From Patescibacteria group bacterium (GTDB lineage: Bacteria; Patescibacteriota; Doudnabacteria; UBA920; VMFF01), in NCBI GenBank assembly GCA_038065615.1, contig JBBTQQ010000001.1, positions 25,577 through 71,084 of the forward strand: DNA of 45,508 nucleotides, in the 5' to 3' direction. The notes under the pieces are model-generated. The model was not told where the DNA came from, made no database searches, and saw only the letters and a list, made by a program, of their open reading frames with translations. Below, piece by piece: positions 5,420 through 21,195 of this stretch. The translations under genes and the position numbers were made by a program. Every line of letters begins with the position of its first letter. Position 1 is the stretch's first letter.

Positions 5420-6409
5420 TCACTTGTCCTTGATGACGATCGTAAACAATCGCAGTTTCTGCTGCGAGACGCTCGCATTTGGATACGGCCCTTCGCTCCG
5501 CTCCTTGTTAGCGATGTACTCCACGGTTTCACCGTCCGAACCAGGCAGGTATCCATGGCAGAACTTCTCTGGAGAAAAGAAATAGCCAGGATTTGTAATG
5601 AGCTCATCCATCTCTGGAATTCCATCACGACTGCCACCAGAAACCGTTCCTTTGAAATCAACACCATTATTTGATACAAAGGTTCGGTTCTTGCTGTAAA
5701 AGCAGTGAGTTCCCCAAATACCGACAACTGCAGTCCTTGGGGACAAGGAGTCAGCTTCAATCTTTGGAACCTTCAGCATGAAGCTAATTCTTGCTGTGTC
5801 CGCCTTAGTTTCGTCAATCCCGGTACAGATCAACAAAATGGTTTGCTGCCACTTGCCAACTGGCATTGTGCTACCAGTCTTAAGCAAACTGTCATTAACC
5901 GAAAAAACAATCTTTTCGGTTTTTGGATCAGCTCTCTGCGGAGTCCCCGGAAGAATAACCGAGGAAAGACTACCACAGTTGCTTACCTGGTATTTGATAC
6001 GAACTTCTGTATTCAACGCCAGACTGTCTTGAAAGGTTTGGCTGAAGAGCGCTTTCGGTGCTGGAGGCTGAATTACTGTGACGGCAACAGAACCGACCAC
6101 AATATCATCAGCCAAATATTTCACCTGATACAGCCCACTGACCTTCAAAACTACTTTCGTCTCAGTCCCCGAAGGATCAATCACGGCAAGGATGGTCTCT
6201 GATGGATCCAACACCAGAAATACAGTATTGCAATGCCCGTTGTTCGGAGCTCCGAAAGCAACTGCGCTGCCGTAGGCAACAGTGACCGGCAAATTTGGAG
6301 TCACCTGAGCCTGACACTTGGGCTTCGGTTCAATAATACCGGAGTTACTGTCTGAACCCTTGCCACAAGCAACAACAAACAGCAACAAAGCTGCAAGTAT
6401 CTTTTGCAT
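5420..6409 (-). CDS. Hypothetical lipoprotein, beta-rich
   Basis: MQKILAALLLFVVAC lipobox; AGGGGGAG SD-like sequence upstream; GC visibly above the flanks. Confidence 0.75.
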   Translation of the reverse strand: MQKILAALLLFVVACGKGSDSNSGIIEPKPKCQAQVTPNLPVTVAYGSAVAFGAPNNGHCNTVFLVLDPSETILAVIDPSGTETKVVLKVSGLYQVKYLADDIVVGSVAVTVIQPPAPKALFSQTFQDSLALNTEVRIKYQVSNCGSLSSVILPGTPQRADPKTEKIVFSVNDSLLKTGSTMPVGKWQQTILLICTGIDETKADTARISFMLKVPKIEADSLSPRTAVVGIWGTHCFYSKNRTFVSNNGVDFKGTVSGGSRDGIPEMDELITNPGYFFSPEKFCHGYLPGSDGETVEYIANKERSEGPYPNASVSQQKLRLFTIVIKDK

Positions 6410-6467
6410 AACTCCCCCTTGTGGTTTCTCTTTCTGAAAAAACAGCGTTACTGACTAATATGTAAAG

Positions 6468-7961
6468 TTAACGAATCTCTAGTCTGGCATCAGTTCTGAA
6501 TGGAATGACAACGGGAATAACTGAGCCGGAAATTGTAGTAACACTTATAGCATGTCCTGTTGCTCTAAACCCTTTTAAACCGTTGTATGATACTGCTACA
6601 TTTGTACTATTAACATCAAGTTTAAATGTATAAACCTCGCCACAACCTAAATTAATCAACAAGTTTTGTCTTCCATCGTTTGCATTAACACTAAATGCTA
6701 CGATGCCACGCACATCAACAACATAGTCATGCTGATCAAAGCTTGTTTCCCCTGCGGAGTTTATACTTCTAGAAAGATCAACACTGCACTTAACTGTTCC
6801 GTTCATCGTCGCAATCGCGATATATCTTGTAGCAGCGTTTACAGAACTCGAGGCATTAAGATAATAGGTGGTTGTTGCAAACGGGGTGTCAGTAATACTA
6901 CCTGAAGATATTGGACTCACAGGAACATTGTTACCTAAGTTTCCTCCGCTTATTGTTACGCTTGTGCAATTCTTTGTTGTCCAGCTAAGTGTGGTTGGTG
7001 ATCCTGAATTAAAATTAGTTGCGCTAAAACCAACGATTGAACATTGCGCTTGTGTGCGCAACACTAAAGGAGTAGTGCTAACATTCAAATTACCAAAATC
7101 TGATCCTGCCGAAAGATTCCAGGTATCGCCATCATTGGGTGTTACTATCTTAGACCCTGATATATTTTCACCGACTACTGGATAATTTGGTCCTGACAAA
7201 CCAACAGTCGTGCAGTTTGCAGTATCCCAGCTAATAGTTGTGCTAGAACCTACGTTAGTTGGATTTGGACTGGCAGAAAAAGAAAGAATCCGGCATGTAG
7301 TAGCTGGACTAACTGTAACTTCCTGTGTCCTTGTGTTTGTTTGTGTGCCATCAGTAAGAGTATATGTAGTGGTACTTGATGGTGTTTTTGTTGTTGAACT
7401 GTTAGTGTTGGTTATGCTTTCAGAATTACCCGCAGAATCACTAAGCGTAAAACCCGTGCAGTTAGATGAACTCCATGATAACTGCGTGTTGCTACCAGCG
7501 GTGATAGTCAGAGGAAAAGCGCTGAAACTCGTTATCTTACAAACAGGTGCTTGTTGGGTAACTGTAATAGTTACAGGCTTTGACACGGATAGACCATCAA
7601 GATCAGTAGCTGAAAATATGTAAGTGTATGTTGTTGGGTTGGCGTTGTAAGTAAGTACGCCTGTAGAGTAGCTGCCAAACGCGGATTTGTCATAAGTAAC
7701 ATATGGAGCGCCACCAGATTGATCCGAGCTTCTAGGCACGGTTAATGTAATATTGCTACAACCAACAGAGTCCCAAGCTATCGTTGCGGCTAATCCAGAA
7801 ACCACTGTTTGTGATGAGGGACGAACTAAAATCCCTAAATCGCAACCCGCCGCATTAACAACTTTTGAATTGCCTGCTGGAAAAACCAAAAATGTGATTG
7901 CTAGAATGATAAAAAGAACATTTGAAACCGTAAGTTTATTTATTCGTTGAATAATGGACAT
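6468..7961 (-). CDS. Secreted Ser/Thr-rich protein with tandem Ig/PKD-like repeats
   Basis: Signal peptide and 3-4 repeats of pattern C.I..FSA.P....G....(L/I)SW....CT. Confidence 0.75.
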   Translation of the reverse strand: MSIIQRINKLTVSNVLFIILAITFLVFPAGNSKVVNAAGCDLGILVRPSSQTVVSGLAATIAWDSVGCSNITLTVPRSSDQSGGAPYVTYDKSAFGSYSTGVLTYNANPTTYTYIFSATDLDGLSVSKPVTITVTQQAPVCKITSFSAFPLTITAGSNTQLSWSSSNCTGFTLSDSAGNSESITNTNSSTTKTPSSTTTYTLTDGTQTNTRTQEVTVSPATTCRILSFSASPNPTNVGSSTTISWDTANCTTVGLSGPNYPVVGENISGSKIVTPNDGDTWNLSAGSDFGNLNVSTTPLVLRTQAQCSIVGFSATNFNSGSPTTLSWTTKNCTSVTISGGNLGNNVPVSPISSGSITDTPFATTTYYLNASSSVNAATRYIAIATMNGTVKCSVDLSRSINSAGETSFDQHDYVVDVRGIVAFSVNANDGRQNLLINLGCGEVYTFKLDVNSTNVAVSYNGLKGFRATGHAISVTTISGSVIPVVIPFRTDARLEIR

Positions 7962-7964
7962 TTT

Positions 7965-8477
7965 CTATTTTCCTTTCACAAGATAGCTAATAATTACGTC
8001 AAGCGTTTTATTATCAGACAAACCTGTCAAAACAATATTCATATCAGCTTGTACACCCCTGCCATACAAACTGGCAATGGGTTTTTTGTCATCAACAAAA
8101 TTATTAGAAATGTAATATCTGTTATCTTTTAAATACCGCTGATATTTTAAATCAGCAACACCAATGTCATACTTTAAAGTAAACTCTGTGGTGTATTGCT
8201 TGCCTCCCTTGCCATAATCAATAGAATAGCTTTGAAGAATCTTGACATCCTTAGCACCAAGCAAAAGCTCTTCTGGAAAACCAGAGATTAGTGTCCCGGA
8301 CAAAGACTCAGTTCTTTTAAATATGTTCTTTCTGTGATTAACCCTTTGAATGTACGTTAATCCCGCGAGAATTATGACTAACAGGACAAAACCAAAAATC
8401 CGCACTCGCGTTTGTGCGTTTTTCTTTTCATTTATATTTGGTTGTTCTGCCCTGTGTATTTTTTGGAAAGGGTACAC
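7965..8477 (-). CDS. Hypothetical membrane-anchored protein
   Basis: 170-aa ORF with one N-terminal TM segment, closely coupled to the next gene. Confidence 0.65.
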   Translation of the reverse strand: MYPFQKIHRAEQPNINEKKNAQTRVRIFGFVLLVIILAGLTYIQRVNHRKNIFKRTESLSGTLISGFPEELLLGAKDVKILQSYSIDYGKGGKQYTTEFTLKYDIGVADLKYQRYLKDNRYYISNNFVDDKKPIASLYGRGVQADMNIVLTGLSDNKTLDVIISYLVKGK

Positions 8478-8530
8478 TAGAAACCCTTTTTAAAGCTCTT
8501 ATGTATCACTAGTATACCAAATACACGAAC

Positions 8531-8561
8531 AAAAAACAAGACCGCACTTGCGGTCTTGTTT
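8531..8561. terminator. Intrinsic terminator after rplU
   Basis: aaacaagaccgc-actt-gcggtcttgttt perfect stem with A/T tails. Confidence 0.85.
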
Positions 8562-8569
8562 AACTTCTT

Positions 8570-8878
8570 TTAAATCTTGATAATCTCTAGTTCTGTGTAG
8601 TTTTGTCTGTGTCCCTGTTTTCTTCTGTATTTTGACTTTGCTTTGTACTTAAAGACAATTATCTTCTTAGAACGAGCTTGTTTCAAAACCTTTGCTTCAA
8701 CAGAAGCATCGGATATGAATGGTTTACCAACAGTAACATTAGCACCGTCTGCAACCATCAAAACTTTTTCTAACTTGATTAAACTGCCAACTTCACCGGC
8801 AATCTTTTCAATCTGTATTTTGTCACCTTTTTTAACCAAGTACTGTTTGCTACCTGATTCTATAATTGCTAAATTCAT
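8570..8878 (-). CDS. rplU: 50S ribosomal protein L21
   Basis: AIIESGSKQYLVKKGD...KIIVFKYKAKSKYRRKQGHRQNYT. Confidence 0.97.
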   Translation of the reverse strand: MNLAIIESGSKQYLVKKGDKIQIEKIAGEVGSLIKLEKVLMVADGANVTVGKPFISDASVEAKVLKQARSKKIIVFKYKAKSKYRRKQGHRQNYTELEIIKI

Positions 8879-8938
8879 TGTTTAATTTCTTTCCTGTATT
8901 GGGATATATAAATTAAAAAGGCTTTTAAAGCCGAGGTA

Positions 8939-8967
8939 ATCATAGCAAAAGAACGAAAAACCGTCAA
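8939..8967 (-). promoter_or_regulatory. Sigma70 promoter for rplU
   Basis: TTGACG-17 nt-TATGAT. Confidence 0.75.
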
Positions 8968-8977
8968 CAAAGTTGTA

Positions 8978-10018
8978 CTAGACGTGCACATTTGCAGAGA
9001 TCAGAAGATTTTGTAGTTGTTTTTTGATCTTCCTTGATTTGGCATGCTTTAACATTCCTAGATACGAGGGAATGCTCTTACTTAAAAATTCTTGGTTTCC
9101 CATTTTAACTTTTAATTTTCTAAACATCCTTTTCTTTGTCTTAATTCTAATAACGGTATGATACGGACGTATTACATAACCTAAAAAATCGATTCCTTGT
9201 GAATACTTCCTAAATATTATTTTTCTTGGATGCAGAATGAGTTTAAGCTTTTTGTCTAAAAAGACTTGAATTCTAGGGACCAATGTTTCTAAAGACTCTT
9301 TGTCTTTAGCTAAGAATATAAAATCATCGCAATATCTTAGATAGTACAGCTCTTTCAATTGATGTTTTGCGAACTGATCTAGTTCGTTCAGATATACATT
9401 AGCGAATAGCTGGCTGGTCACATTTCCCAACGGTATTGCTTTTCCCTTCTGTTTTTCAAAACTGTACAAAATTACCTTGAGCAAACAAACCACATCCTTA
9501 TCCTGAATCTTGTTTTCCAGTAATTCCAAAAACAGGCCATGGTCTATTGAATCAAAGAATTTACTAATATCGCATTTAAGCGACCAAATGTTCTTCTTGT
9601 TATTCTCACTTACTTTAACCGCAAACTGCTCAAGCCTCTTTACAGCCCTATGAATACCTTTTTTGTTTCTACAAGAATACGAATCATGGATAAATGAAAT
9701 ATCAAAGACAGGATACAATATTCTAAAAATTGCATGGTGCAATACCCTATCCCTGACTGACGCCTTATGTATATGCCTGACCTTTGGATCAGTTACATAA
9801 AATGGGATATACTCTGAATGCTCGTATGTCTTACTTTTGAGTTCGTTGTGCAATTTAAACAGGTTGTCTTCCAGATTGTATTCAAAGCTCTGGACATCTG
9901 GTTTGTTACGTTTTCCTCTTTTAAACTCACGCCAGGCCAAAAATAGATTTTCTAAACTAATTATTTTCTCAAAGCTTCCATGACCCAAAATATTTCTATT
10001 AACACGCCCCCCCCCCAT
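8978..10018 (-). CDS. DGR reverse transcriptase
   Basis: 346 aa. DPKVRHI, RDRVLHHA, DSYSCR..KG, KCDISKFFDSIDH, DGR-type IPLGNVTSQLFANVYL, catalytic RYCDD, GIDFLGY. No maturase or endonuclease extension. Confidence 0.95.
   Translation of the reverse strand: MGGGRVNRNILGHGSFEKIISLENLFLAWREFKRGKRNKPDVQSFEYNLEDNLFKLHNELKSKTYEHSEYIPFYVTDPKVRHIHKASVRDRVLHHAIFRILYPVFDISFIHDSYSCRNKKGIHRAVKRLEQFAVKVSENNKKNIWSLKCDISKFFDSIDHGLFLELLENKIQDKDVVCLLKVILYSFEKQKGKAIPLGNVTSQLFANVYLNELDQFAKHQLKELYYLRYCDDFIFLAKDKESLETLVPRIQVFLDKKLKLILHPRKIIFRKYSQGIDFLGYVIRPYHTVIRIKTKKRMFRKLKVKMGNQEFLSKSIPSYLGMLKHAKSRKIKKQLQNLLISANVHV
10007..10016. repeat. C10/G10 homopolymer at the RT/avd start junction
   Basis: Ten consecutive C on +, read as ATG GGG GGG GGG on -. 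Confidence 0.95.
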
Positions 10019-10358
10019 GCTCGGTTCTGCTCCCGTTGTTCATAAAGTTACAGAGTTCTACAAATTAATATATTTACTAAGGTCCAAAATTCCGAAAAAA
10101 GACCGTTTTGGAATTTATCTTAAAATTGAAAATAACTGCCTTGAACTAATTGATTTATTGATTACCGCATCTTTGGAATCTAAGACGAACAAACTTCCGA
10201 CATTAAATACGGCAAGAACAAAAACTGAGGTATTAAAAAGACTGATTAGACTGAGCAGCGAATTAAAAATAATTGATAACAAGAAATATATTGGTCTAGA
10301 AGCTGAACTGCAAGAAATATCCAAAATGATTAATGGTTGGATAAAGTATGTAAAATAG
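10017..10358 (+). CDS. avd: Avd-like four-helix-bundle accessory variability determinant
   Basis: 113 aa, basic, IPKKDRFGI...LKRLIRL...EISKMINGWIK pattern, located between TR and RT. Confidence 0.88.
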   Translation: MLGSAPVVHKVTEFYKLIYLLRSKIPKKDRFGIYLKIENNCLELIDLLITASLESKTNKLPTLNTARTKTEVLKRLIRLSSELKIIDNKKYIGLEAELQEISKMINGWIKYVK

Positions 10359-10365
10359 CACGATC

Positions 10366-10393
10366 AAGTCCCGAGTGACCGGGACTTTTTGTT
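10366..10393 (+). terminator. Terminator for avd; also a hairpin just 3' of TR on the - strand
   Basis: aagtcccg-agtgac-cgggactt followed by T-tract on + only. Confidence 0.75.
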
Positions 10394-10400
10394 GGATGCT

Positions 10401-10517
10401 ACCTCACGGCAACGCAGATTGTCGTTCTCATTGTCGGGATTGTACCAGTTGACGTTGAGCTTGTCAGTGTCGTTCCAGTAGACGTTCGGGACATTGCCAT
10501 CAGAGTTGCGAGAACCG
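10401..10517 (-). ncRNA. DGR template repeat (TR); IMH*-like extension to ~10393
   Basis: 117-bp ungapped match to 10825-10941. It has 32 adenines on the - strand and 10 AAY codons in the target frame. Confidence 0.95.
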
Positions 10518-10701
10518 TTTTGTTTGTCCAACCTCATCCCATGCACCGACGACCTTTTTAAAAATCATCTGAGTTCTCCGATTCTTTTCGGAATTATTTA
10601 CGAAGCATGCACTTTGCAACCTCCTCTAAAGCTGAACAAGTAGTTTCCATGTATTAGGGCAAACCGATGTCTCATTGAGACCGGTTGTATTAGCCAAATA
10701 T

Positions 10702-10710
10702 ATTCTAGCA
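10702..10710 (-). promoter_or_regulatory. Candidate extended -10 promoter for the TR(-RT) transcript
   Basis: TGcTAGAAT directly after the target's terminator; no clear -35. Confidence 0.4.
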
Positions 10711-10732
10711 AAAAATGCTCCAAAAAACCAAA

Positions 10733-10763
10733 GTGCCGACATGATCAGAGATCATATCGGCAC
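10733..10763 (-). terminator. Stem-loop/terminator downstream of the DGR target
   Basis: GTGCCGATATGATC-TCT-GATCATGTCGGCAC (14 bp including one G-U) followed by TTTGGTTTTTT. Confidence 0.75.
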
Positions 10764-10790
10764 AAGGGGTAAAGCCAAGAGTGAGAAGGG

Positions 10791-11546
10791 TTACACGGCA
10801 GCTTTCGCAGCCGCAGTGGAAACCACCTCACGGCAACGCAGATCGTCGAACTCACCGCCGGGACTGTACCAGCGGACGCTGAGCCTGCCAGCGTCGCCCC
10901 AGTCGACGATCGGGACACTGCCACCAGAGTGGCGAGAACCGAAGCAGAGTGTAACGTTCACGATGTCGAGATGCTCACCCGTTTCCAGGTAGTACTTCAA
11001 CTCGTGAAGCAAACGCTCCAGAAGGGTCTCGCCCTTCACTCCGATGTGACTGAGTGCGTTCGCGGACTTGTTCTTCCACTGCTCGTCCGCTTCGACTACA
11101 TCTCGGACCCAGATGGCGTAGCTGCCGTGACTCGCATCACGATCGTTGGTCGGGACTGCTTCGTCGAGGTTCTGATCCGTGTACTTCCATGCGCCAAACT
11201 TCTCGGCGCACTTATCGAAAACCTGCTGGATCGTGACGCCTTGGGCGACAACGATCAGCCTGTCGAAGCCTTCGCGGCGCTCTGGGATCTGGAGACTTGC
11301 GAAGCTGAGCTCGAGACCGAAGTGAACGCGGTAGAAGCTCTGCCACTCAACCAACTTCTGGTTGGTGGTCCACTCCATCGAGTACTTCCCGAACGTGGTT
11401 CGGATGTCTGCGATGAAGTCGCCCTTGTGCGCTGTGATGTTCTTCGCGTCGGCGAACGACAACGGCGGCAACGCTTGAACAAGCGTCGTGATGATGTCAG
11501 TCCTTTGACCATCGGTCATGGGACGGACTGCCTCATGTCTTGGCAT
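10791..11546 (-). CDS. DGR target protein with C-terminal variable region (probable CLec-like fold), no signal peptide
   Basis: VR at the 3' end. Start at ATG 11546 has a GAGGAGG SD (ORF track starts at GTG 11600). GC-rich, ~57% in a sampled line. Confidence 0.92.
   Translation of the reverse strand: MPRHEAVRPMTDGQRTDIITTLVQALPPLSFADAKNITAHKGDFIADIRTTFGKYSMEWTTNQKLVEWQSFYRVHFGLELSFASLQIPERREGFDRLIVVAQGVTIQQVFDKCAEKFGAWKYTDQNLDEAVPTNDRDASHGSYAIWVRDVVEADEQWKNKSANALSHIGVKGETLLERLLHELKYYLETGEHLDIVNVTLCFGSRHSGGSVPIVDWGDAGRLSVRWYSPGGEFDDLRCREVVSTAAAKAAV
10796..10813 (-). promoter_or_regulatory. DGR target-recognition hairpin/cruciform with GAAA loop
   Basis: CGGCTGC-GAAA-GCTGCCG (one T:T mismatch), ~3 nt past the end of TR/VR similarity. 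Confidence 0.7.
10825..10941 (-). repeat. DGR variable repeat (VR)
   Basis: 20 mismatches to TR: 14 A>G, 3 A>T, 2 A>C and 1 T>G (- strand). Confidence 0.95.
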
Positions 11547-11602
11547 GAGATATTCCTCCTCTACGAGTGAAATTGTCCGAAACATCTCTGTCGGATCCAC
11601 AG

Positions 11603-11625
11603 CTTATCTCAGGAGTGAGACAAGA
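11603..11625 (-). promoter_or_regulatory. 5' leader hairpin, diverged copy of the shared motif
   Basis: CTTGTCTC-ACTCCT-GAGATAAG at the predicted transcript start. Confidence 0.45.
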
Positions 11626-11631
11626 TTAAAT

Positions 11632-11660
11632 ATAATACCATAATAGCCTATTTATGTCAA
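11632..11660 (-). promoter_or_regulatory. Sigma70 promoter of the DGR target
   Basis: TTGACA-17 nt-TATTAT with TG extension. Confidence 0.8.
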
Positions 11661-11686
11661 GGGGTTGCTCGCATTACGCATTATCG

Positions 11687-11715
11687 TTGACAAAAGTCTT
11701 GCTTTTTAATAGTAT
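11687..11715 (+). promoter_or_regulatory. Divergent sigma70 promoter with no downstream ORF
   Basis: TTGACA-17 nt-TAGTAT. Confidence 0.6.
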
Positions 11716-11720
11716 TTAGA

Positions 11721-11818
11721 TAACTTCGATAAAGGCCCGTCCTTATAGGCGGAGATTGGCTTAAGGGAAACCTTAGGATAGTCGAAACAAAACAAGCCCC
11801 TGTTGGGGTTTTTGTTTT
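11721..11818 (+). ncRNA. Candidate structured small RNA facing the DUF3800-like gene
   Basis: Promoter; closing stem TTCGAT/GTCGAA; hairpins CCGTC..GGCGG and CTTAAGG-GAAA-CCTTAGG; terminator gcccc-tgtt-ggggt plus T-tract. Confidence 0.55.
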
Positions 11819-11826
11819 GGTCAACA

Positions 11827-12390
11827 TCAAATTGCTTTGATATATTTATTTCGTTGCGCTTTTGTTAAAAGCTCTTTATCTATTTTGTTATTTTGTAGTG
11901 CTGCTCGAATACACCCTGCCCAACGGTCAGCCAGGCGTATAAATGGTTCGCTTTCGTCGCGAGCGCTACGAACATATTTTAAGCTAATATCTCTGATGCG
12001 CAGAGCATTTGTTAATTCCAATGCCTTCTTTTTATCAATACCATCTACGTAAATAATTGCTTGGTATCGGGTAGAATCCATTTTATCTTTAATTGATTTT
12101 TCAATAGTTTCGAGCATTGGCAGAAAGAAAGGAATTGGTTTTTGATATTTGCCATAGTAGATGTTGCCAGCCGCGATGTTATTACCTAAAACCTCTCTCA
12201 GGTGTTCTTCATTTTCAGGAGATCTGGATTTTTGCCACTTTTTAAGACCAACCTTTGTTTCTTTTTCCAGTTATCTTAGTTTTATCCTTATTGCTTCTTG
12301 ATCATCTTCACTTATGACATTAACAACTACAAAGAAATTACTCCCTGAGTCCTGTCCAGTTTCATCAACATAGACGTAAAGTTTTTTAAT
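11827..12390 (-). pseudogene. DUF3800-family (RNase H-like) pseudogene
   Basis: One frame gives KKLYVYVDETGQD...DESEPFIRLADRWAG. There is an in-frame TAA at 12273-12271, and ATT where ATG is expected at 12390. Confidence 0.75.
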
Positions 12391-12411
12391 TTTATTACCC
12401 GTATTTTGAGC

Positions 12412-12447
12412 ATAACAAAAAGCGCCATTGTTGGCGATTTTGTTAAT
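12412..12447 (-). terminator. Probable terminator after the GT4/MraY-like gene
   Basis: aacaaaa..cgcca-ttgt-tggcg..ttttgtt inverted repeat. Confidence 0.6.
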
Positions 12448-12453
12448 AAAGTT

Positions 12454-13521
12454 TTAATACTTTTCCGGAATATGCGGATATTTCCTCTTGTAAGCAAATA
12501 CTGTGCCTAAAGCAATGGATATCATTATGATAAACAGAATTATAAGGGATACTAGTTTACCCATTGATTGCATGGATATCGCAATACCACCAAACACAAC
12601 AGCTATGCCATAAAGGCTTAATACTGTTTGTCTTTGTGAAAAACCAAGATCTAAGAGCCTGAAATGCAAATGCTTCCTGTCTGCTTTAAACGGTGATGCC
12701 CCATACCAAATTCTTCTAGCTATGACCCAGGCAACATCAAGGATTGGAATACCCATAACCAGTAACGCTGTGGCTATTTTCCCTCCCAAAAGCACTGAAA
12801 AAACACCAAGCATAAAACCAAGGAAAGTGCTTCCTGATTCTCCCAAGAAAATAGATGCAGGATTAAAATTATAAACTAAGAAACCAGCAATTGCCCCACA
12901 AAGGATTATTGCAATGCTTGCAGTTACTGGTTGATTAATTCTTCCTGTTAAAGAAAGAGCAAAAAGCGTTAAACTCGCAATCAAAGAAATTCCCGAAGTT
13001 AAACCATCCATGCCATCTAAGAATTTTGTGGTATATATCATTCCTAGGAGAAAGAAAAAGACCAAAATCCCAGATGCTTTAATACCCAGTATTAAAAAGT
13101 TTAGATTAATAACTCCGCCAAAAGGATTTGAAATGAAGTTAATCCCCACCCCTATCCCAGATGCAAGAACAACTAAGACTGCGAGAATCGGAAATATAAA
13201 CTGGAGTCTTGGGCTTAGGGAATATTTGTCATCTAAGTACCCACCGATCATCAACAATGTTCCGCCAATGATCATGCCCCAGAAAAATCGCATTGGTATT
13301 ACAATCAAATTTACTTCAAAGAAACGAAGATAGATAAAAAGGGAAATCATGAATGCAGAAAATATTGCAAAACCACCGAGCAGGGGAATTGGTGTGGTGT
13401 GTATCTTTCTTGGATGATTAGGAACATCAACTGCTGAAACCTTAAAAGCCAGCTTCTTAACCATTGGGGTTATGAACAAAGCTATGAGGAATGCAAGAAA
13501 AAAGAAAAATGTATATTGCAT
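12454..13521 (-). CDS. Undecaprenyl-phosphate GlcNAc-1-phosphate transferase (WecA/TagO, MraY superfamily)
   Basis: RKIH..PIPLLGG, GYLDD, FLDGMDGL, YNFNPASIFLGESG, ADRKHLHFRL. Confidence 0.92.
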   Translation of the reverse strand: MQYTFFFFLAFLIALFITPMVKKLAFKVSAVDVPNHPRKIHTTPIPLLGGFAIFSAFMISLFIYLRFFEVNLIVIPMRFFWGMIIGGTLLMIGGYLDDKYSLSPRLQFIFPILAVLVVLASGIGVGINFISNPFGGVINLNFLILGIKASGILVFFFLLGMIYTTKFLDGMDGLTSGISLIASLTLFALSLTGRINQPVTASIAIILCGAIAGFLVYNFNPASIFLGESGSTFLGFMLGVFSVLLGGKIATALLVMGIPILDVAWVIARRIWYGASPFKADRKHLHFRLLDLGFSQRQTVLSLYGIAVVFGGIAISMQSMGKLVSLIILFIIMISIALGTVFAYKRKYPHIPEKY

Positions 13522-13522
13522 A

Positions 13523-15178
13523 TTATTCCATTAAGTTTGCTGCCATTGCATCAGGAGTTCCTGATGACTTTCTTGATTTAGGAGTAACCCAAAAACCCAT
13601 GTACTTACCAAGCATTAATCTAGTCTGAGCATCAACTGCTGGGAGACTTCCGAAGAATACTGAAATGACAGGAACAAAAATCCACTGCAAATACATACTA
13701 ACAGTTCTCCAGATTGTGTACTTCTTTGGTCTTGGAGGAAGCAAGTACATGTTTATATACACTGAAAAAATTAGAAAGAAAGTTGCGGCAGTCATTAATA
13801 TTCTAGTCATAAAAGGAAGATTAACCGCAAAAATCGTGTTTCCAAAATTACCACCACCAATAACTAGAGGAAGCCAACCTAGAGCTGATATGACGATGGA
13901 GGCTGTTGCCCAGTTATAGTTTCCTTCAATGTACTGAAATGCTTTGTAAAACCTGTCCCAACGAGGCGCTTTTAACTTAAACAAAGCTGGAATTAAAGAT
14001 GGATAGTATTCAACATTGTAAGCCCAGCGTCTTTTTTGCTTGTATTGATTAATTAATGTTTGGGTATATGTATCTGCTAAACAAGTATCTAAAGAAACAG
14101 ACATAAACAAAGGGACTGTTCTGTAATCCCCATTGTAGTGTAAGTAGCACTGCCAAAAAATATATCCATCTTCGTTAATTAAATCTTTGCGCCAAAAACC
14201 AACTTCTTTCAAAGCTTTTAAAGTCATACTGTGAGAAGAAAAGGTTCTTAATCGGTTTGGTCTTGAAGATTCAACGAACTGCCAAAAAGTGTTGCTTACA
14301 GAGACAACTCTAATAAATGCCGGGGAATCCCAAATGTTGTTGTTGTAAACAGCGATAGGTTGATAACTTGAACGATATGGTTTTTCAGCAGTTAAGAACT
14401 CATACATTACTCTAGCAAAGTACTGTGGATGAACCATGGTATCTGAATCAAAGTTTGAAACAATGACATTATCAATTCCAATGTTTAATTTTTCTAACTC
14501 TGGTAGAACAGATTGAACAGCCCAGGAAGCATTTGCACTCTTCCCTTTTATCTCACCCTCTAAGCCATCAGGGTGAGCAGTAATGAAGAAGCGGAAAAAA
14601 TCATTACCGTATTTTTCTTTAATCGCTCTGGCAATCTTTTGTGCTGACTCGCCCATTCTTTCTTCGCTTGCAAGTATAACTATCATTTTATCCTTAGGAT
14701 AGTTAGTTTGCTCCAAAGACCTTATGGTTGTATCTAAAACTTCTTCACTTTCATCAACAAAGGGATATAGAATAAGATGGTAATAATCAAAATAATTGGC
14801 GCTTTTTCTTCCGATTGTTAAAAGCTTACCGATTCTTTCCATTTCATCCTTGAAATAGTGTCTTGCTCTACTGGTTTTAGCATGTCTTAACTGTTCTGAA
14901 ATATATTCAATGTACTTTGAAAAATCATGTAGCTGGTCAACCAAAAAACGCCAATCAAGAGTTGCAAAAAAACGATACCTCTTGTATGAAAAAACTAAAT
15001 GAAATGATCCGTTGATTGCTTTGAAAAGCCAATATAGATCAAAAAGGATTATGAACACGGAAACCCAAACAGGATGGTTCCTTGAAAAGAAAAGGGCAAA
15101 AAACAAAGTAGCCCAGAACATCGCGCCTGGGATTATCTCAAAAACACGGTCAACAAAGCTCTTCTTTTTTAATAACAT
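13523..15178 (-). CDS. Membrane glycosyltransferase family 2
   Basis: GKSAN, DSD, INED and QKRRW motifs; TM segments at both ends. Confidence 0.88.
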   Translation of the reverse strand: MLLKKKSFVDRVFEIIPGAMFWATLFFALFFSRNHPVWVSVFIILFDLYWLFKAINGSFHLVFSYKRYRFFATLDWRFLVDQLHDFSKYIEYISEQLRHAKTSRARHYFKDEMERIGKLLTIGRKSANYFDYYHLILYPFVDESEEVLDTTIRSLEQTNYPKDKMIVILASEERMGESAQKIARAIKEKYGNDFFRFFITAHPDGLEGEIKGKSANASWAVQSVLPELEKLNIGIDNVIVSNFDSDTMVHPQYFARVMYEFLTAEKPYRSSYQPIAVYNNNIWDSPAFIRVVSVSNTFWQFVESSRPNRLRTFSSHSMTLKALKEVGFWRKDLINEDGYIFWQCYLHYNGDYRTVPLFMSVSLDTCLADTYTQTLINQYKQKRRWAYNVEYYPSLIPALFKLKAPRWDRFYKAFQYIEGNYNWATASIVISALGWLPLVIGGGNFGNTIFAVNLPFMTRILMTAATFFLIFSVYINMYLLPPRPKKYTIWRTVSMYLQWIFVPVISVFFGSLPAVDAQTRLMLGKYMGFWVTPKSRKSSGTPDAMAANLME

Positions 15179-15180
15179 GT

Positions 15181-15528
15181 TTAGATAACAATGATTGACT
15201 TCAAAAACAAGACTGCGATTAGAATTAAAGCTTGAACCAACATAGTTACTGCAACAACTATCTTAGCAGCAAACTCTTCCCGTTCTTTTGTGTATCTGTA
15301 AAAAACATAGTTAGCTACAAGAATTAACAATCCAACTAAAGGCAAAGTATACAAATAGTAGCCTTTAGTAACAATATCAGGACCAAAGAAAATATTGTAA
15401 TGCAAAGGCAACTGCTCTGCGTTCGGCTTTATCTGGGCGATAATAACAACCCATGATATAATATTCAGGAGAGCGCTAACAGCGATCTGAAACAAAATAT
15501 TTCTTGTATACTCTAATACCTTATTCAT
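15181..15528 (-). CDS. Small 3-TM membrane protein (PLHYN motif)
   Basis: Hydrophobic ORF; start at ATG 15528, 7 nt after TGgTATAAT. Confidence 0.75.
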   Translation of the reverse strand: MNKVLEYTRNILFQIAVSALLNIISWVVIIAQIKPNAEQLPLHYNIFFGPDIVTKGYYLYTLPLVGLLILVANYVFYRYTKEREEFAAKIVVAVTMLVQALILIAVLFLKSIIVI

Positions 15529-15573
15529 GGTTTTGATTATACCAGAAAACAATTAATTTTTCCACTAAACAAA

Positions 15574-17064
15574 ATGAAAAAACACTATGTTTTGCTTGGG
15601 TCCATTCTATTGGTCGCGGCTTTGCTACGCCTATTTAATTTAACTGCTATCTCTCTTTGGCATGACGAAGCTTTCTCTGCGTTGCTTGTAAACTACAGCT
15701 GGCAGGAAATGTTCTACAGAATCGGATTAGATGTGCACCCCCCTTTCTACTACGTCATTTTAAGGCTCTGGTCTGATGTATTTGGACACTCGCTTTTTGC
15801 TTTAAGAGGTTTTTCTGTTTTCTTTGGTGTTGCAACTGTCTGGGCTGGATATGGTTTCATGAAGGTTGCCTTCAAAAAAGAATCGCTAGCTCTCGCAACA
15901 GCGCTTCTACTTGCTGTTAATCCTTTTCAAATTCAATATGTTACTGAAGCAAGGATGTACACCTTAGGAAGTTTTCTTTTGTTAATCTCTGGGTATTTTC
16001 TTGTTAAAGCATTTGATACGAAGAAATTTGTTTACTGGCTTGGCTTTATCCTCTCAACCAGCGCAGCCATGTACACCCACTATTACCTATTCTTCTCTAT
16101 CTTCGCTATTGGTTTGTTCGCGCTTTACTATCTCTTTAAAAACTACCGCTTTGAATTAAAGAAATATTCCCAGCTTGTTTTTTCATATATCATCGTCCTA
16201 CTGCTATACATCCCTTGGCTTAAAACCTTTAAATTCCAGTTTACACAAGTCCAGGAAAACTACTGGATTCTAAAAATGAACGAATGGTCAGTACCACTAA
16301 CTAACTGGAGGATGATCTTCGGTACTGGAGCAGACAGCAACAATCCAATAACTAAAGTTTTCTTGGTTATTGCTTCCTTGTTTACTATTTTTCTTGTTTA
16401 CCGAGTCATTAAAAAAGAAAAGTCCATTTACAAATGGCTTGCTTTGTTAGGAACAATTGTTCCTTTCTTAGGAGCACTGCTTCTTTCATTAAAACAATCA
16501 ATATACCTTGATAGATATTTTCTTTTTGCAGCTCTTTTCTACACCATTCTTCTTTGCTTATTCATCTTTGAATTACCAAACAAAAAACTAAAGTACGGAA
16601 TATATATTTTAATGGTTGGCATATCTTTGCTTAACTGGTGGGGTTTTTGGAGCTCAATGGATATTAAACACAAGGCTGGAATGGCTTCCGTTGCCTCATA
16701 TTTAAACAACAACATTGAAGAAGGAGACCGTCTACTAATTGGCTCTTCTTCTGAGTTCTTTAATTTTAAATTTTACAATAGATCAACAACATCACCGTTG
16801 CTATACATTCCTGGCATTTCTGAGGTTAAACAATTACCACACTTTTCTGGAACAGCACTTCTAACAAACGCTGAGTTAATACATGATTTAAACAAAGGCG
16901 TAGAAAAAGGTAGTACTGTCTGGATACTATGGACTAATGCTTTTGGAGGAGTTAAACCAGAAGTTCCTCAAAACTGGGTACAGATCGGACAAGCTCATTC
17001 TTGGGAAGATGTAAGACCTTTTGCCGGAACTTGGATTATGGTTGATGAATATCTCGTGAAATAA
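15574..17064 (+). CDS. GT-C fold glycosyltransferase (ArnT/PMT-like)
   Basis: SLWHDEAFS, DVHPPFYY, EARMY, YTHYY; multiple TM segments. Confidence 0.88.
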   Translation: MKKHYVLLGSILLVAALLRLFNLTAISLWHDEAFSALLVNYSWQEMFYRIGLDVHPPFYYVILRLWSDVFGHSLFALRGFSVFFGVATVWAGYGFMKVAFKKESLALATALLLAVNPFQIQYVTEARMYTLGSFLLLISGYFLVKAFDTKKFVYWLGFILSTSAAMYTHYYLFFSIFAIGLFALYYLFKNYRFELKKYSQLVFSYIIVLLLYIPWLKTFKFQFTQVQENYWILKMNEWSVPLTNWRMIFGTGADSNNPITKVFLVIASLFTIFLVYRVIKKEKSIYKWLALLGTIVPFLGALLLSLKQSIYLDRYFLFAALFYTILLCLFIFELPNKKLKYGIYILMVGISLLNWWGFWSSMDIKHKAGMASVASYLNNNIEEGDRLLIGSSSEFFNFKFYNRSTTSPLLYIPGISEVKQLPHFSGTALLTNAELIHDLNKGVEKGSTVWILWTNAFGGVKPEVPQNWVQIGQAHSWEDVRPFAGTWIMVDEYLVK

Positions 17065-17069
17065 CAGCA

Positions 17070-17101
17070 CCCCGCACCCTGACCGAAGTCAAAGTGCGGG
17101 G
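17070..17101 (-). terminator. Strong stem-loop downstream of the target-like gene
   Basis: CCCCGCACTTTGAC-TTCG-GTCAGGGTGCGGGG, 14 bp with two G-U pairs and a C(UUCG)G loop on the - strand. Confidence 0.65.
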
Positions 17102-17160
17102 CAAAGCGGAGTGCCGAGTGACCAGAACCCAAAAGGGCAAAGATCACAAGCACCCAAGAG

Positions 17161-17802
17161 CTACAACTCGCGGGGACGAACGAACCGAACGCCGCCGTCG
17201 AAGCCGCTGCCGACCCAACGGAAGTCGAGCACCCAACGCTTACCGCCCCAGTCGAAGCAAGCCACGCGGCGACGACGGTGGCCATCGAGCAGGACTGTCC
17301 GAGGCATTACGAAATAATGCGTACCTCTGAACTCGACGGGGAAAATCTCCTTTCCGTCTTCCTGTGCCTTCAGCAGTGTGGCTGCGAAGCCGAGACTGCC
17401 ATAAGCACCCGCCGACCCCTCGATCATCGTGTCGCCGTTGACGTAGGTCTCGCCGTCCTGAACAGGGCAAGAGGAATAGTCGAGGTTGACGAGATTGATT
17501 TCGCCTTCCAGACTGTCACTCTTCACTGTCCAGCCAAGCGGAACAAGACCTGTGTCCTGGGCACGAACGGGTTTCACGATTCCCAACATCTTGCGGGCAA
17601 AACTCAGAACGAATGCCCGATAGGTTGTAGCAAGCTCCTGCTTGAACACGCCACCATTGGCGTGGACTGCTTGGAGCTGGTCGCCCGTGAAGGTGTCCTG
17701 TTCGTCCAGGACACTGTCCACTGCTTCCGTGGTCAGGGTTCGCACTCGGCGAGCCTGAGCCTTGGAAGGCTTCTGTTCGGACGTGAGCGATGTTATAGTC
17801 AT
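17161..17802 (-). CDS. DGR-target-like protein; VR-like C-terminus does not match the local TR
   Basis: C-terminus RRVACFDWGGKRWVLDFRWVGSGFDGGVRFVRPRE with mostly NNC/NNT codons; GC-rich; GGAGG 9 nt before ATG 17802. Confidence 0.75.
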   Translation of the reverse strand: MTITSLTSEQKPSKAQARRVRTLTTEAVDSVLDEQDTFTGDQLQAVHANGGVFKQELATTYRAFVLSFARKMLGIVKPVRAQDTGLVPLGWTVKSDSLEGEINLVNLDYSSCPVQDGETYVNGDTMIEGSAGAYGSLGFAATLLKAQEDGKEIFPVEFRGTHYFVMPRTVLLDGHRRRRVACFDWGGKRWVLDFRWVGSGFDGGVRFVRPREL

Positions 17803-17845
17803 CGTCAGCATCCTCCATGCAAATTGTGATGATGCTACCCCCTTA

Positions 17846-17880
17846 GGGATACTCTGCTCGTTAGTGAGCTAAGAGCCCAA
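17846..17880 (-). promoter_or_regulatory. Shared 5' leader hairpin, copy A
   Basis: GGG CTCT TA GCTC ACTAAC GAGC AGAG TAT CCC; 23 nt identical to 41709-41743. Confidence 0.7.
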
Positions 17881-17930
17881 GATACAAACTTCTTCGTAAC
17901 TAAGACTTGTAGCCCACTTGTTAGTTTCAC

Positions 17931-17959
17931 ATCATAGCCCTCGAGCCTTGTTTTGTCAA
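17931..17959 (-). promoter_or_regulatory. Sigma70 promoter of the target-like gene
   Basis: TTGACA-17 nt-TATGAT. Confidence 0.8.
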
Positions 17960-17961
17960 AG

Positions 17962-18261
17962 CTAATTCAACAAATCATTAAGCAACTCCGGTGTTTGTTG
18001 AAGCTGTTCTGTTGAAACATTTGATGATGAAAGAATCACCTGGAACATTATTAAAAACGCTCCTGCTGTGAATATGGTGATTAAGACGCAAACAAGAGAT
18101 ACTTTGTTTGCGTCTTTTTTTTCGCTGAAAACAAAATAGTAGAGAGCAATGAATAACCCTAGTGGCATGAAAAGAAAAGAAAACAAATACGCATAGCGTT
18201 TGCTTTTAACGCTGACATTGTTCTCTTCTATATGTTCTAAATCGACAATTGTCTCTTCCAT
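17962..18261 (-). CDS. Small 2-TM hypothetical protein
   Basis: ORF coupled to pyrH with two hydrophobic segments. Confidence 0.65.
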   Translation of the reverse strand: MEETIVDLEHIEENNVSVKSKRYAYLFSFLFMPLGLFIALYYFVFSEKKDANKVSLVCVLITIFTAGAFLIMFQVILSSSNVSTEQLQQTPELLNDLLN

Positions 18262-18262
18262 G

Positions 18263-18952
18263 TTATTCAATTACTGTTCCTTTAAACTTTTTACCAGAAA
18301 TTAAGTTCTCAAGATTTTTAAAGTCTTTGCCATTCATAACTACAACACGTAGTTTGTTTTGCTGAGCGTGTTTGCTTGCAATCGGATCAAACGGTGCATG
18401 TAAACCTGGATCCCATTTATTACCAACTATTTTTCTAAACTCAGGCCATGATATTTTCTCTATCTTTTTTGCTCCAGCTAATTTCGGATCTTTAGTGTAT
18501 ACATAGTCAATGTTGCTTAAGTTGATTACAGTCTTTGCGCCATAATTCTTAGCAATCAAAACAGCACAATAGTCTGTTGAGTTTCCTGGTCTATACCCTG
18601 CTGCGATTATTAAATTCGCTTTAATATTACGCTTTTTTGTCGGATCTTTAATCACTTTCTGATATGTTGTTCCTCTAAATATTGTCCTTAAAAGTTGTGC
18701 GTTTAAACGTGTAGCATGAATTCCTAACCAATCTAAATCCTCAATCGGCATTTTATGCACAACCGCTGCTCCTGCGTCTCTGTATTTTCTTGCTGTTGCT
18801 CCTCCTCCTGCAACGACTATGAATCTGTTTCCTTTTTTAATCTGTTGCTCTATGAAAACTTTAAACTTCTTTAAAAACCCTGTATCAATACTGTCTGGAA
18901 CAAAAACTGAACCACCAAGTGAAAGAACAAATGTTTTTTTTGCCATTTTCAT
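18263..18952 (-). CDS. pyrH: UMP kinase, short archaeal-like type
   Basis: VLSLGGS, GGGATARKY, LDWLGIHATRLNA, PGNSTD, VYTKDP, PFDP. Confidence 0.92.
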   Translation of the reverse strand: MKMAKKTFVLSLGGSVFVPDSIDTGFLKKFKVFIEQQIKKGNRFIVVAGGGATARKYRDAGAAVVHKMPIEDLDWLGIHATRLNAQLLRTIFRGTTYQKVIKDPTKKRNIKANLIIAAGYRPGNSTDYCAVLIAKNYGAKTVINLSNIDYVYTKDPKLAGAKKIEKISWPEFRKIVGNKWDPGLHAPFDPIASKHAQQNKLRVVVMNGKDFKNLENLISGKKFKGTVIE

Positions 18953-18958
18953 TTTTAA

Positions 18959-21185: not shown

Positions 21186-21195
21186 GTTTTTCCCT

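Follow-up and report, generated by a model that had tools for sequence, protein, structure and literature searches.

A complete diversity-generating retroelement on a Patescibacteria chromosome, with two natural variable-repeat alleles in sister genomes

Does this stretch of a Patescibacteria chromosome carry a complete diversity-generating retroelement (DGR), has the element been active recently, and what kind of protein does it diversify? The questions arise at positions 8978 to 11660 of a 45,508-nucleotide stretch of DNA (the window; GenBank assembly GCA_038065615.1, contig JBBTQQ010000001.1). The original prediction, made from the letters alone, proposed an apparently intact DGR, active now or recently, with a cytoplasmic target. 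Our best explanation is very probably correct: a complete chromosomal DGR of a lineage restricted to Patescibacteria (CPR), with adenine-specific homing from a template repeat (TR) to a variable repeat (VR) in a soluble C-type-lectin (CLec)/FGE-like binding protein. The host is an ultra-small groundwater bacterium.

Parts and class of the element

All parts of the element can be read directly from the DNA. In order of position they are:

8978..10018, minus strand: DGR reverse transcriptase (RT) gene, 346 aa, uninterrupted open reading frame
10007..10016: C10 homopolymer where avd and RT start head to head (G10 in the RT sense)
10017..10358, plus strand: avd accessory gene, 113 aa, uninterrupted, on the strand opposite to RT, TR and target
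10366..10387: terminator-like hairpin in the avd-TR gap, 8-pair stem, then a T run
10393..10519, minus strand: TR, core 10401-10517 plus the 5' AAC codon and an 8-nt 3' IMH*-like tail
10733..10763, minus strand: predicted intrinsic terminator of the target, 14-bp stem, then a T run
10791..11546, minus strand: target (variable protein) gene, 251 aa, GC 58%, GC3 0.73
10795..10814, minus strand: GC-rich GAAA-loop hairpin, just 3' of the VR, over the last target codons
10817..10943, minus strand: VR, target codons 202-242 of 251, with diversified codons 202-233
11632..11660, minus strand: promoter-like site of the target, TTGACA-17-TATTAT, 11/12 consensus matches, TG before the -10

The predicted integrity of RT and avd holds, since both are uninterrupted and both match Pfam, PHROG or the sequences of solved structures. 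The RT scores 77.8 bits against Pfam RVT_1 (cut-off 29.6) and 365 bits against phrog_1423 'Reverse transcriptase'. Its best solved relative is 8ub7_A (160.9 bits, residues 16-328), presumably the Bordetella bRT, which we recognised by its length of 328 aa. The next match is a group II intron RT, and structures of group II intron and retron RTs reach at most 79 bits; the score against the group II model TIGR04416 (148.6 bits) lies under the cut-off of 300. The translation contains LGNVTSQ and YCDD, which we take to be DGR-type RT motifs. By these sequence matches the RT belongs to the DGR clade. Avd matches Pfam bAvd (62.3 bits, cut-off 40, profile positions 4-107 of 107) and phrog_3206 'Avd protein of DGR' (69.3 bits), and scores 68.3 bits against NCBIfam DivGenRetAVD, under the cut-off of 80. 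The element is chromosomal: its neighbours, which include no phage genes, are dnaB, recR, rplU and glycosyltransferases.

We compared 58 loci, the window and 57 that we fetched; a sister locus (L005) was excluded as a near-duplicate. All 25 related loci in which RT and Avd occur together show identical gene order and orientation, the inverted avd included. Apart from the target and these two, no neighbour gene is conserved in the 58 loci. The adenine bias described below recurs in relatives, where TR/VR mismatches fall on TR adenines in 17/17 (L006), 15/15 (L008), 24/24 (L016) and 28/28 (L052) cases. The primary survey of CPR DGRs is reportedly that of Paul et al. in 2017.

The element belongs to a known type. 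In the available text of Wu et al. (2018, PMC5758913), architecture B3 is TR-(avd)-RT, the bracketed avd lying between the other two on the reverse strand, and the window has this order: target-VR, then TR, then avd on the opposite strand, then RT. Their Supplementary Data 1 contains LCSGSR 14 times and CSGSR 16 times, and the occurrences listed all stand in alignments of class UVR3. Rows of this class (for example ...LDVENVTLCSGSRSSGGSVPRVDW...) line up with our VR, matched by eye and motif, and share with it the pattern LD..N.TLC.GSR...G.VP...W....L.V.W......LR.R. By this motif, the VR falls into UVR3. The CPR DGRs that Roux et al. (2021, PMC8144416) call 'DGR clade 2' likewise share host group, order and inverted avd with the window, and their targets have no membrane, signal or known domain, like ours. 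The B3 order, UVR3 and targets without membrane or signal features are thus already described in these two papers. DGRs are known to be common in CPR, as the original prediction stated. We see no essential difference between the published CPR DGRs and this one. The element is ordinary, as hundreds of CPR DGRs with such order and VR class have been catalogued. What we add is the allele pair, a VR-like patch in a TR, and measurements of GC3 bias and of the poly-G run.

Several sites around the genes may serve as signals. On the plus strand the hairpin at 10366-10387 is predicted to act as intrinsic terminator for avd; in the presumed TR RNA, read from the minus strand, it would lie 14 nt 3' of TR. 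The minus-strand RNA of 10355-10405 folds with -18.9 kcal/mol (z = -3.19). All 28 related loci have a predicted hairpin that begins no more than 60 nt 3' of TR (MFE -12.1 to -30.9, values that carry no shuffle control). The terminator hairpin of the target folds as DNA with -13.3 kcal/mol (z = -8.86). This putative terminator and the promoter-like site are consensus matches and not proof of function. An Rfam scan of 8500-12600 (E <= 1) returned nothing, and the window has no tRNA.

The GAAA-loop hairpin at 10795-10814 is a candidate target-recognition hairpin. It follows the VR only, and the DNA of 10788-10826 folds with -9.4 kcal/mol (z = -3.46), a stability matched by 1 of 200 shuffles. A comparable hairpin after the VR (MFE <= -8) exists in only 10 of 28 related loci. 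Inverted repeats after the IMH are found in 34% of DGRs, according to the available text of Wu et al. (2018, PMC5758913).

Template, alleles and recent diversification

The core repeats, TR 10401-10517 and VR 10825-10941, align on the minus strand over 117 nt without a gap and with 20 mismatches, exactly as first reported. Nineteen of the 20 lie at TR adenines (14 A>G, 3 A>T, 2 A>C); the sole exception is a T>G at 10480 (TR) and 10904 (VR). Of the 32 TR adenines 19 are altered and only 13 are kept in the VR. With A making up 32/117 of the TR, at least 19 of 20 mismatches at A have a binomial probability of 3.0e-10. On the plus strand the varying letters are T, so the adenines are those of the minus strand, the coding strand of target and RT. 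In the whole genome of 724,694 bases this is the only such repeat pair, with one TR and one VR for this element.

The repeat is slightly longer than its core at both ends. At the 5' end the TR codon AAC (10517-10519) stands opposite TTC in the VR (10941-10943), where the sister allele has TAC. At the 3' end the 17 nt at 10825-10841 of the VR are invariant, GC-rich and IMH-like. Beyond this identical end follow eight more, partly alike bases (TR 10393-10400, VR 10817-10824) with three differences, then unrelated flanks.

A sister genome holds a second natural allele. From 5794 to 11666 the window differs from the sister locus at 25 of 5,873 positions (99.6% identity). Fourteen of these differences lie in the VR, four in the TR and seven in the remaining ~5,630 positions, which makes the VR strongly enriched over the rest (odds ratio 107, P = 1e-19). 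All 14 VR differences are at TR-adenine sites, and the 603 nt of target sequence that precede the VR are free of differences. In the proteins of a 90%-identity cluster (seven plus the window's own), the two VR alleles differ at 10 residues, all in the VR. Judged by these sequences, the element has diversified its VR recently in evolutionary terms, as the original prediction had it. The two natural alleles are thus indirect evidence that mutagenic retrohoming occurs. They also make this locus a clean and complete reference case, a pair of VR alleles in almost identical DNA.

The repeats might instead have arisen by ordinary duplication of the gene's 3' end, after which the copies diverged by drift; a retron-like or group II RT without any relation to them would then lie close only by coincidence. 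The TR does sit within a decayed copy of the target C-terminus that extends beyond the VR: a 60-codon remnant ORF (10364-10546), 38% identical to target residues 175-247, with one TGA. Against drift stands that the mismatches concentrate on one base of one strand, and that the 14 differences between the alleles do so as well. The score of the RT's best solved relative is double that of group II and retron RTs, an Avd is present, and the arrangement recurs in every related locus with both genes. We give the drift reading next to no credence.

A recently silenced or very rarely firing DGR deserves more weight, and we consider it unlikely. Here the VR alleles would be older than they appear, each maintained in its own population, and would have been moved into near-identical flanks by recombination, while diversification would have ceased by now. 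The sister genomes do permit this. Near-identity stops at 11666, 6 nt upstream of the promoter-like site of the target, and identity is ~93% over 12461-17000, 92% over 17001-34504 and 100% over 34528-37000. The two genomes are mosaics of identity, hence recombination is frequent here. Old alleles, however, should carry linked differences, and there are none in 603 nt and seven in 5.6 kb. Besides, RT, avd and TR are intact, as are the IMH-like end and the hairpins.

Sequencing runs bear on the same alternative. We compared four runs as contigs only, a form in which rare variants cannot show. In X1, the probable source run, a 3,035-nt contig has no difference from the window over 10156-12300, and the contigs of this run contain no second VR. 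In X12, from another study, the contigs 10649-10927 and 10938-11088 are without difference too; they span most of the VR except 10928-10937. The contigs of X11 leave 10843-10927 uncovered, and those of X11 and X12 end before the poly-C run. Four further runs from one more study contain all sampled words. The exact 31-nt pattern of the target terminator had 0 records in metagenome_contigs. Because the X1 and X12 contigs show no difference, the dominant VR allele looks stable across samples. This stability favours a silenced element, yet variants too rare for contigs would be invisible in it.

Two features of the alleles themselves also count against the active reading. At 10904 both have G where the present TR has T (10480), and the TR of the outgroup L006 has A. 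It is therefore probable that neither lineage has copied the codon at 10904 afresh from the TR as it now stands. Moreover, the alleles share 11 identical changes, more than we estimate for two independent complete rewrites, which suggests partial or patchy homing or, alternatively, older alleles.

For an active DGR, we infer the transcript, the priming and the homing steps by analogy with Bordetella phage BPP-1. A minus-strand transcript containing the TR would be bound by an RT-Avd complex and copied into cDNA with random bases opposite template adenines. The cDNA would then replace the VR at target codons 202-233. The invariant GC-rich sequence with which the repeat ends on its 3' side would steer it there, perhaps together with the GAAA-loop hairpin, and the TR would remain the master copy. 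The analogy is close in parts. Both elements have an RT of the same clade, an Avd, a C-terminal VR in a C-type-lectin-like domain (predicted in our case) and adenine-specific differences from TR to VR. In both, the repeat also has an invariant 3' end rich in G and C, and the VR is followed by a hairpin whose loop has 4 nt (a predicted hairpin in our case). In contrast, BPP-1 (mtd-avd-TR-brt) is phage-borne and its target is a tail fibre, whereas the window element is chromosomal with a small, predictedly soluble protein as its target. Further unlike BPP-1, avd is inverted between TR and RT, and a G10 run lies at the RT/avd starts. Since avd is inverted, the RNA 3' of TR would consist of the avd terminator hairpin and antisense avd, instead of the dedicated spacer of BPP-1. 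RT can be reached from TR only through antisense avd, and no promoter could be named for the TR transcript.

Fold and location of the variable protein

The start of the target is likely the ATG at 11546, 6 nt after GAGGAGGAA, which yields 251 aa; a GTG at 11600 is less likely. The protein has no match in Pfam, NCBIfam, PADLOC or PHROG. Among the Pfam models that it does not match are FGE-sulfatase and DUF1566, which we take to be the lectin-type DGR target domains. When 67 members of the target family were scanned singly against Pfam, no family occurred in more than four at E <= 1, and the names were scattered, unrelated chance matches. A profile of the 67 relatives likewise gave only chance matches against PDB sequences (E 0.38 and 0.61). 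In the ESM Atlas only clusters of unnamed 'hypothetical protein' matched the target. The family is large, with at least 2,262 clusters at 50% identity, and is one of small proteins without export signals.

In its own genome the family HMM matches only the target and the TR remnant. A GC-rich ORF (G000:C1:123793-124524), suspected by eye to be a paralogue of the target, found no support in its sequence. This ORF adjoins the genome's second RT/avd pair.

The predicted structure is more informative. An AlphaFold2 model of the target (pLDDT 92.0, pTM 0.81) is helical in residues 1-80, followed at about 85-246 by a C-type-lectin/FGE-like domain that ends in the VR. We compared the model with 48,161 chains using VIA-align and obtained 17 chains with Z >= 5; all Z values lie below 8, where matches are middling and, according to the tool, may reflect merely a common arrangement. 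The nearest solved chain is TvpA (2y3c, Z 7.4, 131 residues aligned, rmsd 3.5). FGE-like proteins (Z 7.2-6.5), TaqVP (5vf4, 5.5) and Mtd (1yu0, 5.4) come next, and after them many C-type lectin domains, down to Z ~4. Almost all matches cover about residues 84-246. Foldseek on the same model returned nothing at E <= 0.001 from PDB and BFVD.

With moderate confidence, then, the model assigns the target a C-type-lectin/FGE-like fold with the VR at its C-terminal end. The suggestion in the original prediction that the structure be checked for such a fold is borne out at this strength. TvpA, TaqVP and Mtd, which match residues 86-244 of the model, resemble the target: their folds are of the FGE or C-type-lectin type, and their variable residues too lie C-terminally. 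They differ from it in that identity is only 10-13%, with no match at the sequence level, and the 80-residue helical N-terminus has no tested counterpart in them. The fold assignment is new here: a confident model would place UVR3, which had the status of an 'unknown VR' class in Wu et al., among the C-type-lectin/FGE-like folds. In the model the variable residues lie on the last strands and loops of this domain, hence the target may be a binding protein with a re-writable site.

Where would such a protein bind? The original prediction put both the protein and its ligand inside the cell. The predicted lack of a signal peptide stands, as the target has no membrane helix and a maximal 19-residue Kyte-Doolittle score of 0.85. 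The same score is below 1.6 in 65 of 67 family members. A cytoplasmic target is plausible, and only plausible, because the absent Sec signal is the sole support for it and for an intracellular ligand.

The variable protein may instead leave the cell or be displayed by a Sec-independent route and bind the surfaces of host cells or phages, as is supposed for most cellular DGR targets. CPR bacteria live attached to other cells, and TvpA is a cell-envelope lipoprotein in Treponema. Both points count for a non-cytoplasmic protein. Against it are the missing hydrophobic N-terminus and membrane helix, in the target as in 65 of the 67 relatives. None of the 58 loci has a conserved neighbour that could act as exporter or anchor. 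A search for longer, fused forms of the target (441-2000 aa), which might carry a membrane or export domain, found none, which is weak evidence. We regard this reading as rather improbable. The location of CPR DGR targets is already acknowledged as an open question by Roux et al. (2021, PMC8144416), who leave undecided whether such targets are truly not membrane-bound or just have no features by which this could be recognised, a doubt that also counts for a protein outside the cytoplasm.

Cytoplasmic DGR targets have also been predicted in multicellular bacteria, where, in the available text of Dore et al. (2024, PMC10907252), they are proposed to be internal sensors. Those targets are described there as parts or partners of conflict systems of the STAND NTPase or MoxR type, to which they are fused or otherwise linked, whereas ours is a stand-alone protein of 251 aa with neither an effector domain nor a conserved neighbour. 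A large family without export signals bears on whether it is internal proteins, and not those of the surface, that CPR DGRs diversify.

A patch in the sister template and the poly-G junction

The TR of the sister genome is not simply the TR of the window. A VR-like patch of 15 nt (within a 15-18-nt stretch) carries bases that are found in the VR there. The patch has removed 4 of 34 mutable adenines from the sister TR and fixed Gly, Arg, Ser and His in the template. It is a concrete and checkable case of a template that is not invariant.

A second feature lies between avd and RT. Their start codons overlap in CATG beside the C10 run: the ATG of RT is followed by nine G in frame, and the ATG of avd comes directly after the run. 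Of the 25 loci with both genes, 20 have a run of G8-G10 at this junction. None of the titles and abstract openings found, including those from the literature on phase variation and slipped strands, had a homopolymer in a DGR as its subject.

Patch and run together allow a speculative reading, which we think doubtful. Information may also flow back from VR to TR and, with the slippage-prone G10, the cassette would tune both where and whether it mutates. Should such back-conversion recur, and the patch be more than a one-off gene conversion, the templates of DGRs would 'learn' residues that selection has favoured and would freeze step by step. The remaining close TR pairs (L024/L030, L032/L052 and window/L006) are uninformative on this point. 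At the avd/RT junction itself, one contig of run X9 shows C11, at a depth of 2.4.

An adenine-specific DGR

The original prediction of a DGR holds. It rests on a pair of repeats with an adenine-specific pattern of change, and the two accompanying proteins are identified by profile matches. TR (10401-10517) and VR (10825-10941), both read on the minus strand, align over 117 nt without a gap. There are 20 mismatches, 19 of them at TR adenines (14 A>G, 3 A>T and 2 A>C) and one T>G. VR thus alters 19 of the 32 TR adenines and keeps 13. The probability that at least 19 of 20 mismatches fall on one base with a share of 32/117 of TR is 3.0e-10. The earlier alignment and mismatch figures are exact, because direct reading, alignment and a script count agree. 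A repeat finder returns the same pair as the longest direct repeat (82% identity), and the entire 724,694-base genome holds one TR and one VR of this element. The repeat reaches one codon further at its 5' end (AAC in TR, TTC in VR, TAC in the sister allele), and eight additional bases match partially at the 3' end.

The RT matches Pfam RVT_1 and phrog_1423 (365 bits). Its best match among solved structures is 8ub7_A, almost over the full length, at 160.9 bits; group II intron and retron RTs reach at best half of that. The database labels this entry only "Reverse transcriptase"; from its length we take it to be the Bordetella bRT. Avd scores 62.3 bits against Pfam bAvd, above the cut-off of 40, and 68.3 bits against the NCBIfam model, under the cut-off of 80. 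It also matches the PHROG family "Avd protein of DGR".

Features of the element, in window positions
11660-11632, minus: promoter-like site of the target, TTGACA-17-TATTAT, 11 of 12 consensus matches
6 nt before the target ATG at 11546, minus: motif GAGGAGGAA, read directly
10791-11546, minus: target gene, 251 codons, VR at codons 202-242
10795-10814, minus: GAAA-loop hairpin over the final codons of the target, z = -3.46
10763-10733, minus: strong terminator 3' of the target, z = -8.9
Between this terminator and TR: spacer of 213 nt
10519-10393, minus: TR, within a 60-codon decayed copy of the target C-terminus
10387-10366: hairpin 3' of TR, z = -3.19; its opposite strand is the avd terminator
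10017-10358, plus: avd
10018-8978, minus: RT

The neighbouring genes are dnaB, recR, rplU and glycosyltransferases. Hence, the DGR is chromosomal and lies outside any recognisable prophage. The element is a genuine and complete DGR that has been active recently, and it belongs to a well-described CPR type. The TR-(avd)-RT order is architecture B3 in the relevant excerpts of Wu et al. 2018 (PMC5758913). The same excerpts record a CPR class of VR, UVR3, whose genes are listed there as having no known motif and an unknown fold; the UVR3 rows match the VR of the window. In passages of Roux et al. 2021 (PMC8144416), CPR DGRs form clade 2, which is restricted to Patescibacteria. What the present locus adds to this known type is a fold assignment for UVR3, a clean pair of alleles and a VR-like patch in the template of a sister genome.

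TR itself sits in an open frame of 60 codons (10364-10546) with 38% identity to target residues 175-247. The resemblance extends beyond VR, to residues 175-201, which suggests that TR probably originated by duplication of the 3' end of the target.

On the other side of the target, a stretch of 794 nt (11667-12460) that begins 6 nt upstream of the -35 box is missing in the sister genome. It contains a 96-codon ORF (11827-12117, minus) without a match in Pfam, PHROG or PADLOC and, at 11794-11811, a terminator-like hairpin.

VR alleles and a patch in the sister template

The past activity read from the TR/VR pair in the original prediction is borne out by a second VR allele in the sister genome (locus L005). 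Over 5794-11666 the two loci are identical at 5,848 of 5,873 positions. VR contains 14 of the 25 differences (10849-10942) and TR four, which leaves seven elsewhere. All 14 VR differences face TR adenines, and differences are strongly enriched in VR compared with the rest (odds ratio 107, P = 1e-19). The 603 nt of the target gene 5' of VR do not differ at all. The same picture emerges at the protein level. The 90%-identity cluster of the target comprises seven sequences in two forms, and the 10 residue differences between the forms all fall within VR; one member, P0126, carries two extra substitutions outside VR.

Identity between the two genomes changes sharply along the window. It is 99.6% over 5794-11666, ~93% over 12461-17000, 92% over 17001-34504 and 100% over 34528-37000. 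The contrast between the DGR block and the ~92-93% over 12461-34504 argues that the DGR is located in a block that was recently common to both genomes. Both species-representative genomes are mosaics, a pattern that points to recent recombination between lineages.

Contigs from sequencing runs carry both alleles. In X1, the probable source run, one contig of 3,035 nt is identical to the window. In a different study, two contigs of run X12 (10649-10927, 10938-11088) agree fully with the window allele. X9 has the second VR allele together with the sister TR on a single contig of 759 nt. X11 contains a third strain, ~3% divergent.

How the alleles arose can be asked at the 34 TR-adenine sites. 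Both alleles keep the adenine at nine of them and share one new base at 11; at six they carry different new bases, and at eight only one allele is changed. Two independent full rewrites would, as a rough expectation, give ~6 shared and ~16 one-sided changes. The excess of shared changes could be explained by partial or patchy replacement, by site preferences or by selection. The sole non-adenine mismatch (T at 10480 in TR, G at 10904 in VR) is identical in both alleles, and the TR of the distant outgroup locus L006 has A at the equivalent position. This A suggests that TR itself probably mutated from A to T once that codon had been copied for the last time, and that neither VR was re-copied there afterwards.

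The four TR differences (10450, 10455, 10461 and 10464; compared with 6029-6154 in L005) fall within 15 nt. The window carries A at every one of these sites, where the sister carries the base found in both VRs (C, G, G and G). Two adenines between these sites are unchanged in the sister TR and are also kept in the VR of the window. In the X11 strain and in L006, A likewise occupies all four, so the sister TR state is derived. The patch is carried by two assemblies, the L005 genome and the X9 contig that also spans VR, and its length is too small for it to stem from an assembler that switched between repeats. The simplest reading of the patch would be a short gene conversion from VR to TR, or mutagenised cDNA landing in TR. 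Either way, the patch takes away four mutable adenines, and the template is itself variable.

Target family, fold and base composition

The target has no match in Pfam, NCBIfam, PADLOC or PHROG. A word-indexed search finds 248 relatives at E <= 0.001, nearly all of 180-290 aa. None of them has a precomputed Pfam domain, and all named sources are CPR groups. An HMM search through all 1.84 billion representatives yields 2,262 clusters at E <= 0.001, of which 1,083 reach E <= 1e-30. No longer, fused forms of the target were found, for which the search is weak evidence.

We compared 59 loci, the window and 58 from species-representative genomes. RT and Avd are each detected in 27 of them and occur together in 25, where avd is always inverted and abuts RT. 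TR-like repeats occur in 29 loci (two matches are weak or doubtful), and for most of these the mismatches are almost exclusively at A. The remaining family members are not near any RT, and DGR-type RTs lie elsewhere in four of five such genomes searched. No other gene is conserved beside the family in the 58 loci used for the comparison of neighbours, from which L005 was omitted as nearly identical to the window.

An AlphaFold2 model of the target, built with 67 relatives, has a pLDDT of 92.0 and a pTM of 0.81. Residues 12-76 form four helices, followed by a mixed alpha/beta domain. Foldseek gives no match at E <= 0.001, nor any in BFVD; its best weak rows are Link modules, C-type lectins, TaqVP and Mtd. 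In an all-against-all structural search the top neighbour is TvpA (Z 7.4, 131 residues, rmsd 3.5). The FGE-like proteins CalU17, PorKN, PvdO, EgtB and pFGE follow (Z 7.2-6.5), then TaqVP (Z 5.5), Mtd (Z 5.4) and many C-type lectin domains. Nearly all matches cover residues ~84-246. Each Z is middling, yet the list is uniform and takes in the three solved DGR variable proteins among the hits. For these reasons we assign the domain, with moderate confidence, a C-type-lectin/FGE-like fold, as the original prediction had proposed checking; the assignment applies little to the N-terminal 80 residues.

The target lacks both a hydrophobic N-terminal region and a membrane helix (maximum KD19 0.85), and KD19 stays under 1.6 in 65 of the 67 relatives. 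Hydropathy thus agrees with a target that is neither Sec-exported nor membrane-anchored; the cytoplasmic location given in the original prediction would be plausible. According to passages of Roux et al. 2021 (PMC8144416), clade 2 targets typically have no transmembrane or other domains, and whether they are genuinely non-membrane-bound is left undecided there. Cytoplasmic DGR targets are predicted in other bacteria in parts of Dore et al. 2024 (PMC10907252).

The target gene (10791-11546) has a GC content of 58% in a genome of 38%. Its GC3 is 0.73 (0.75 without VR), compared with 0.37 for RT, 0.29 for avd and 0.26-0.33 for most other window genes computed. At third codon positions, T is depleted as well as A. 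Hence, the bias does not stem from adenine mutagenesis. It recurs in the family: without VR, the target exceeds the GC content of its flanks in 48 of 54 related loci (mean +0.07) and that of its own RT in 22 of 22 (GC3 +0.24). In all 22, RT falls below the flanks.

The genome is dotted with ~47 short islands of 52% GC or more, mostly of 300-1,600 nt. Most cover one GC3-rich ORF of unknown function; an example is the island at 16925-17924 (ORF 17161-17811).

The G/C run between avd and RT

The start codons of RT and avd overlap in CATG, which adjoins a run of ten C on the plus strand (G on the RT strand) at 10007-10016. Runs of G8 to G10 occupy this junction in 20 of the 25 two-gene loci (G8 in two, G9 in seven, G10 in 11) and are absent from five (L014, L021, L032, L048 and L052); the RTs of the loci compared share only ~50% identity. 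One X9 contig, at a depth of 2.4, reads C11 where the window has C10. The window run is in frame with the RT ATG, and the avd ATG comes after the run, thus both genes read "on". The run may be a slippage switch for RT, avd or both.

Five C or G runs of at least 8 occur in the genome, two of them at its two DGRs. The three others are C runs of 8-11: inside a 552-codon ORF (C4:25460-25467), upstream of a gene whose product has a signal peptide (C9:35645-35655) and upstream of a cold-shock-like gene (C13:21438-21446). These may be further contingency sites.

The second DGR-type RT of the genome lies outside the window, in a locus at C1:121934-124524. It is 50% identical to the first and is accompanied by an inverted avd (36% identical), with a C9 run at the junction and a GC-rich ORF of 244 codons adjoining the pair.
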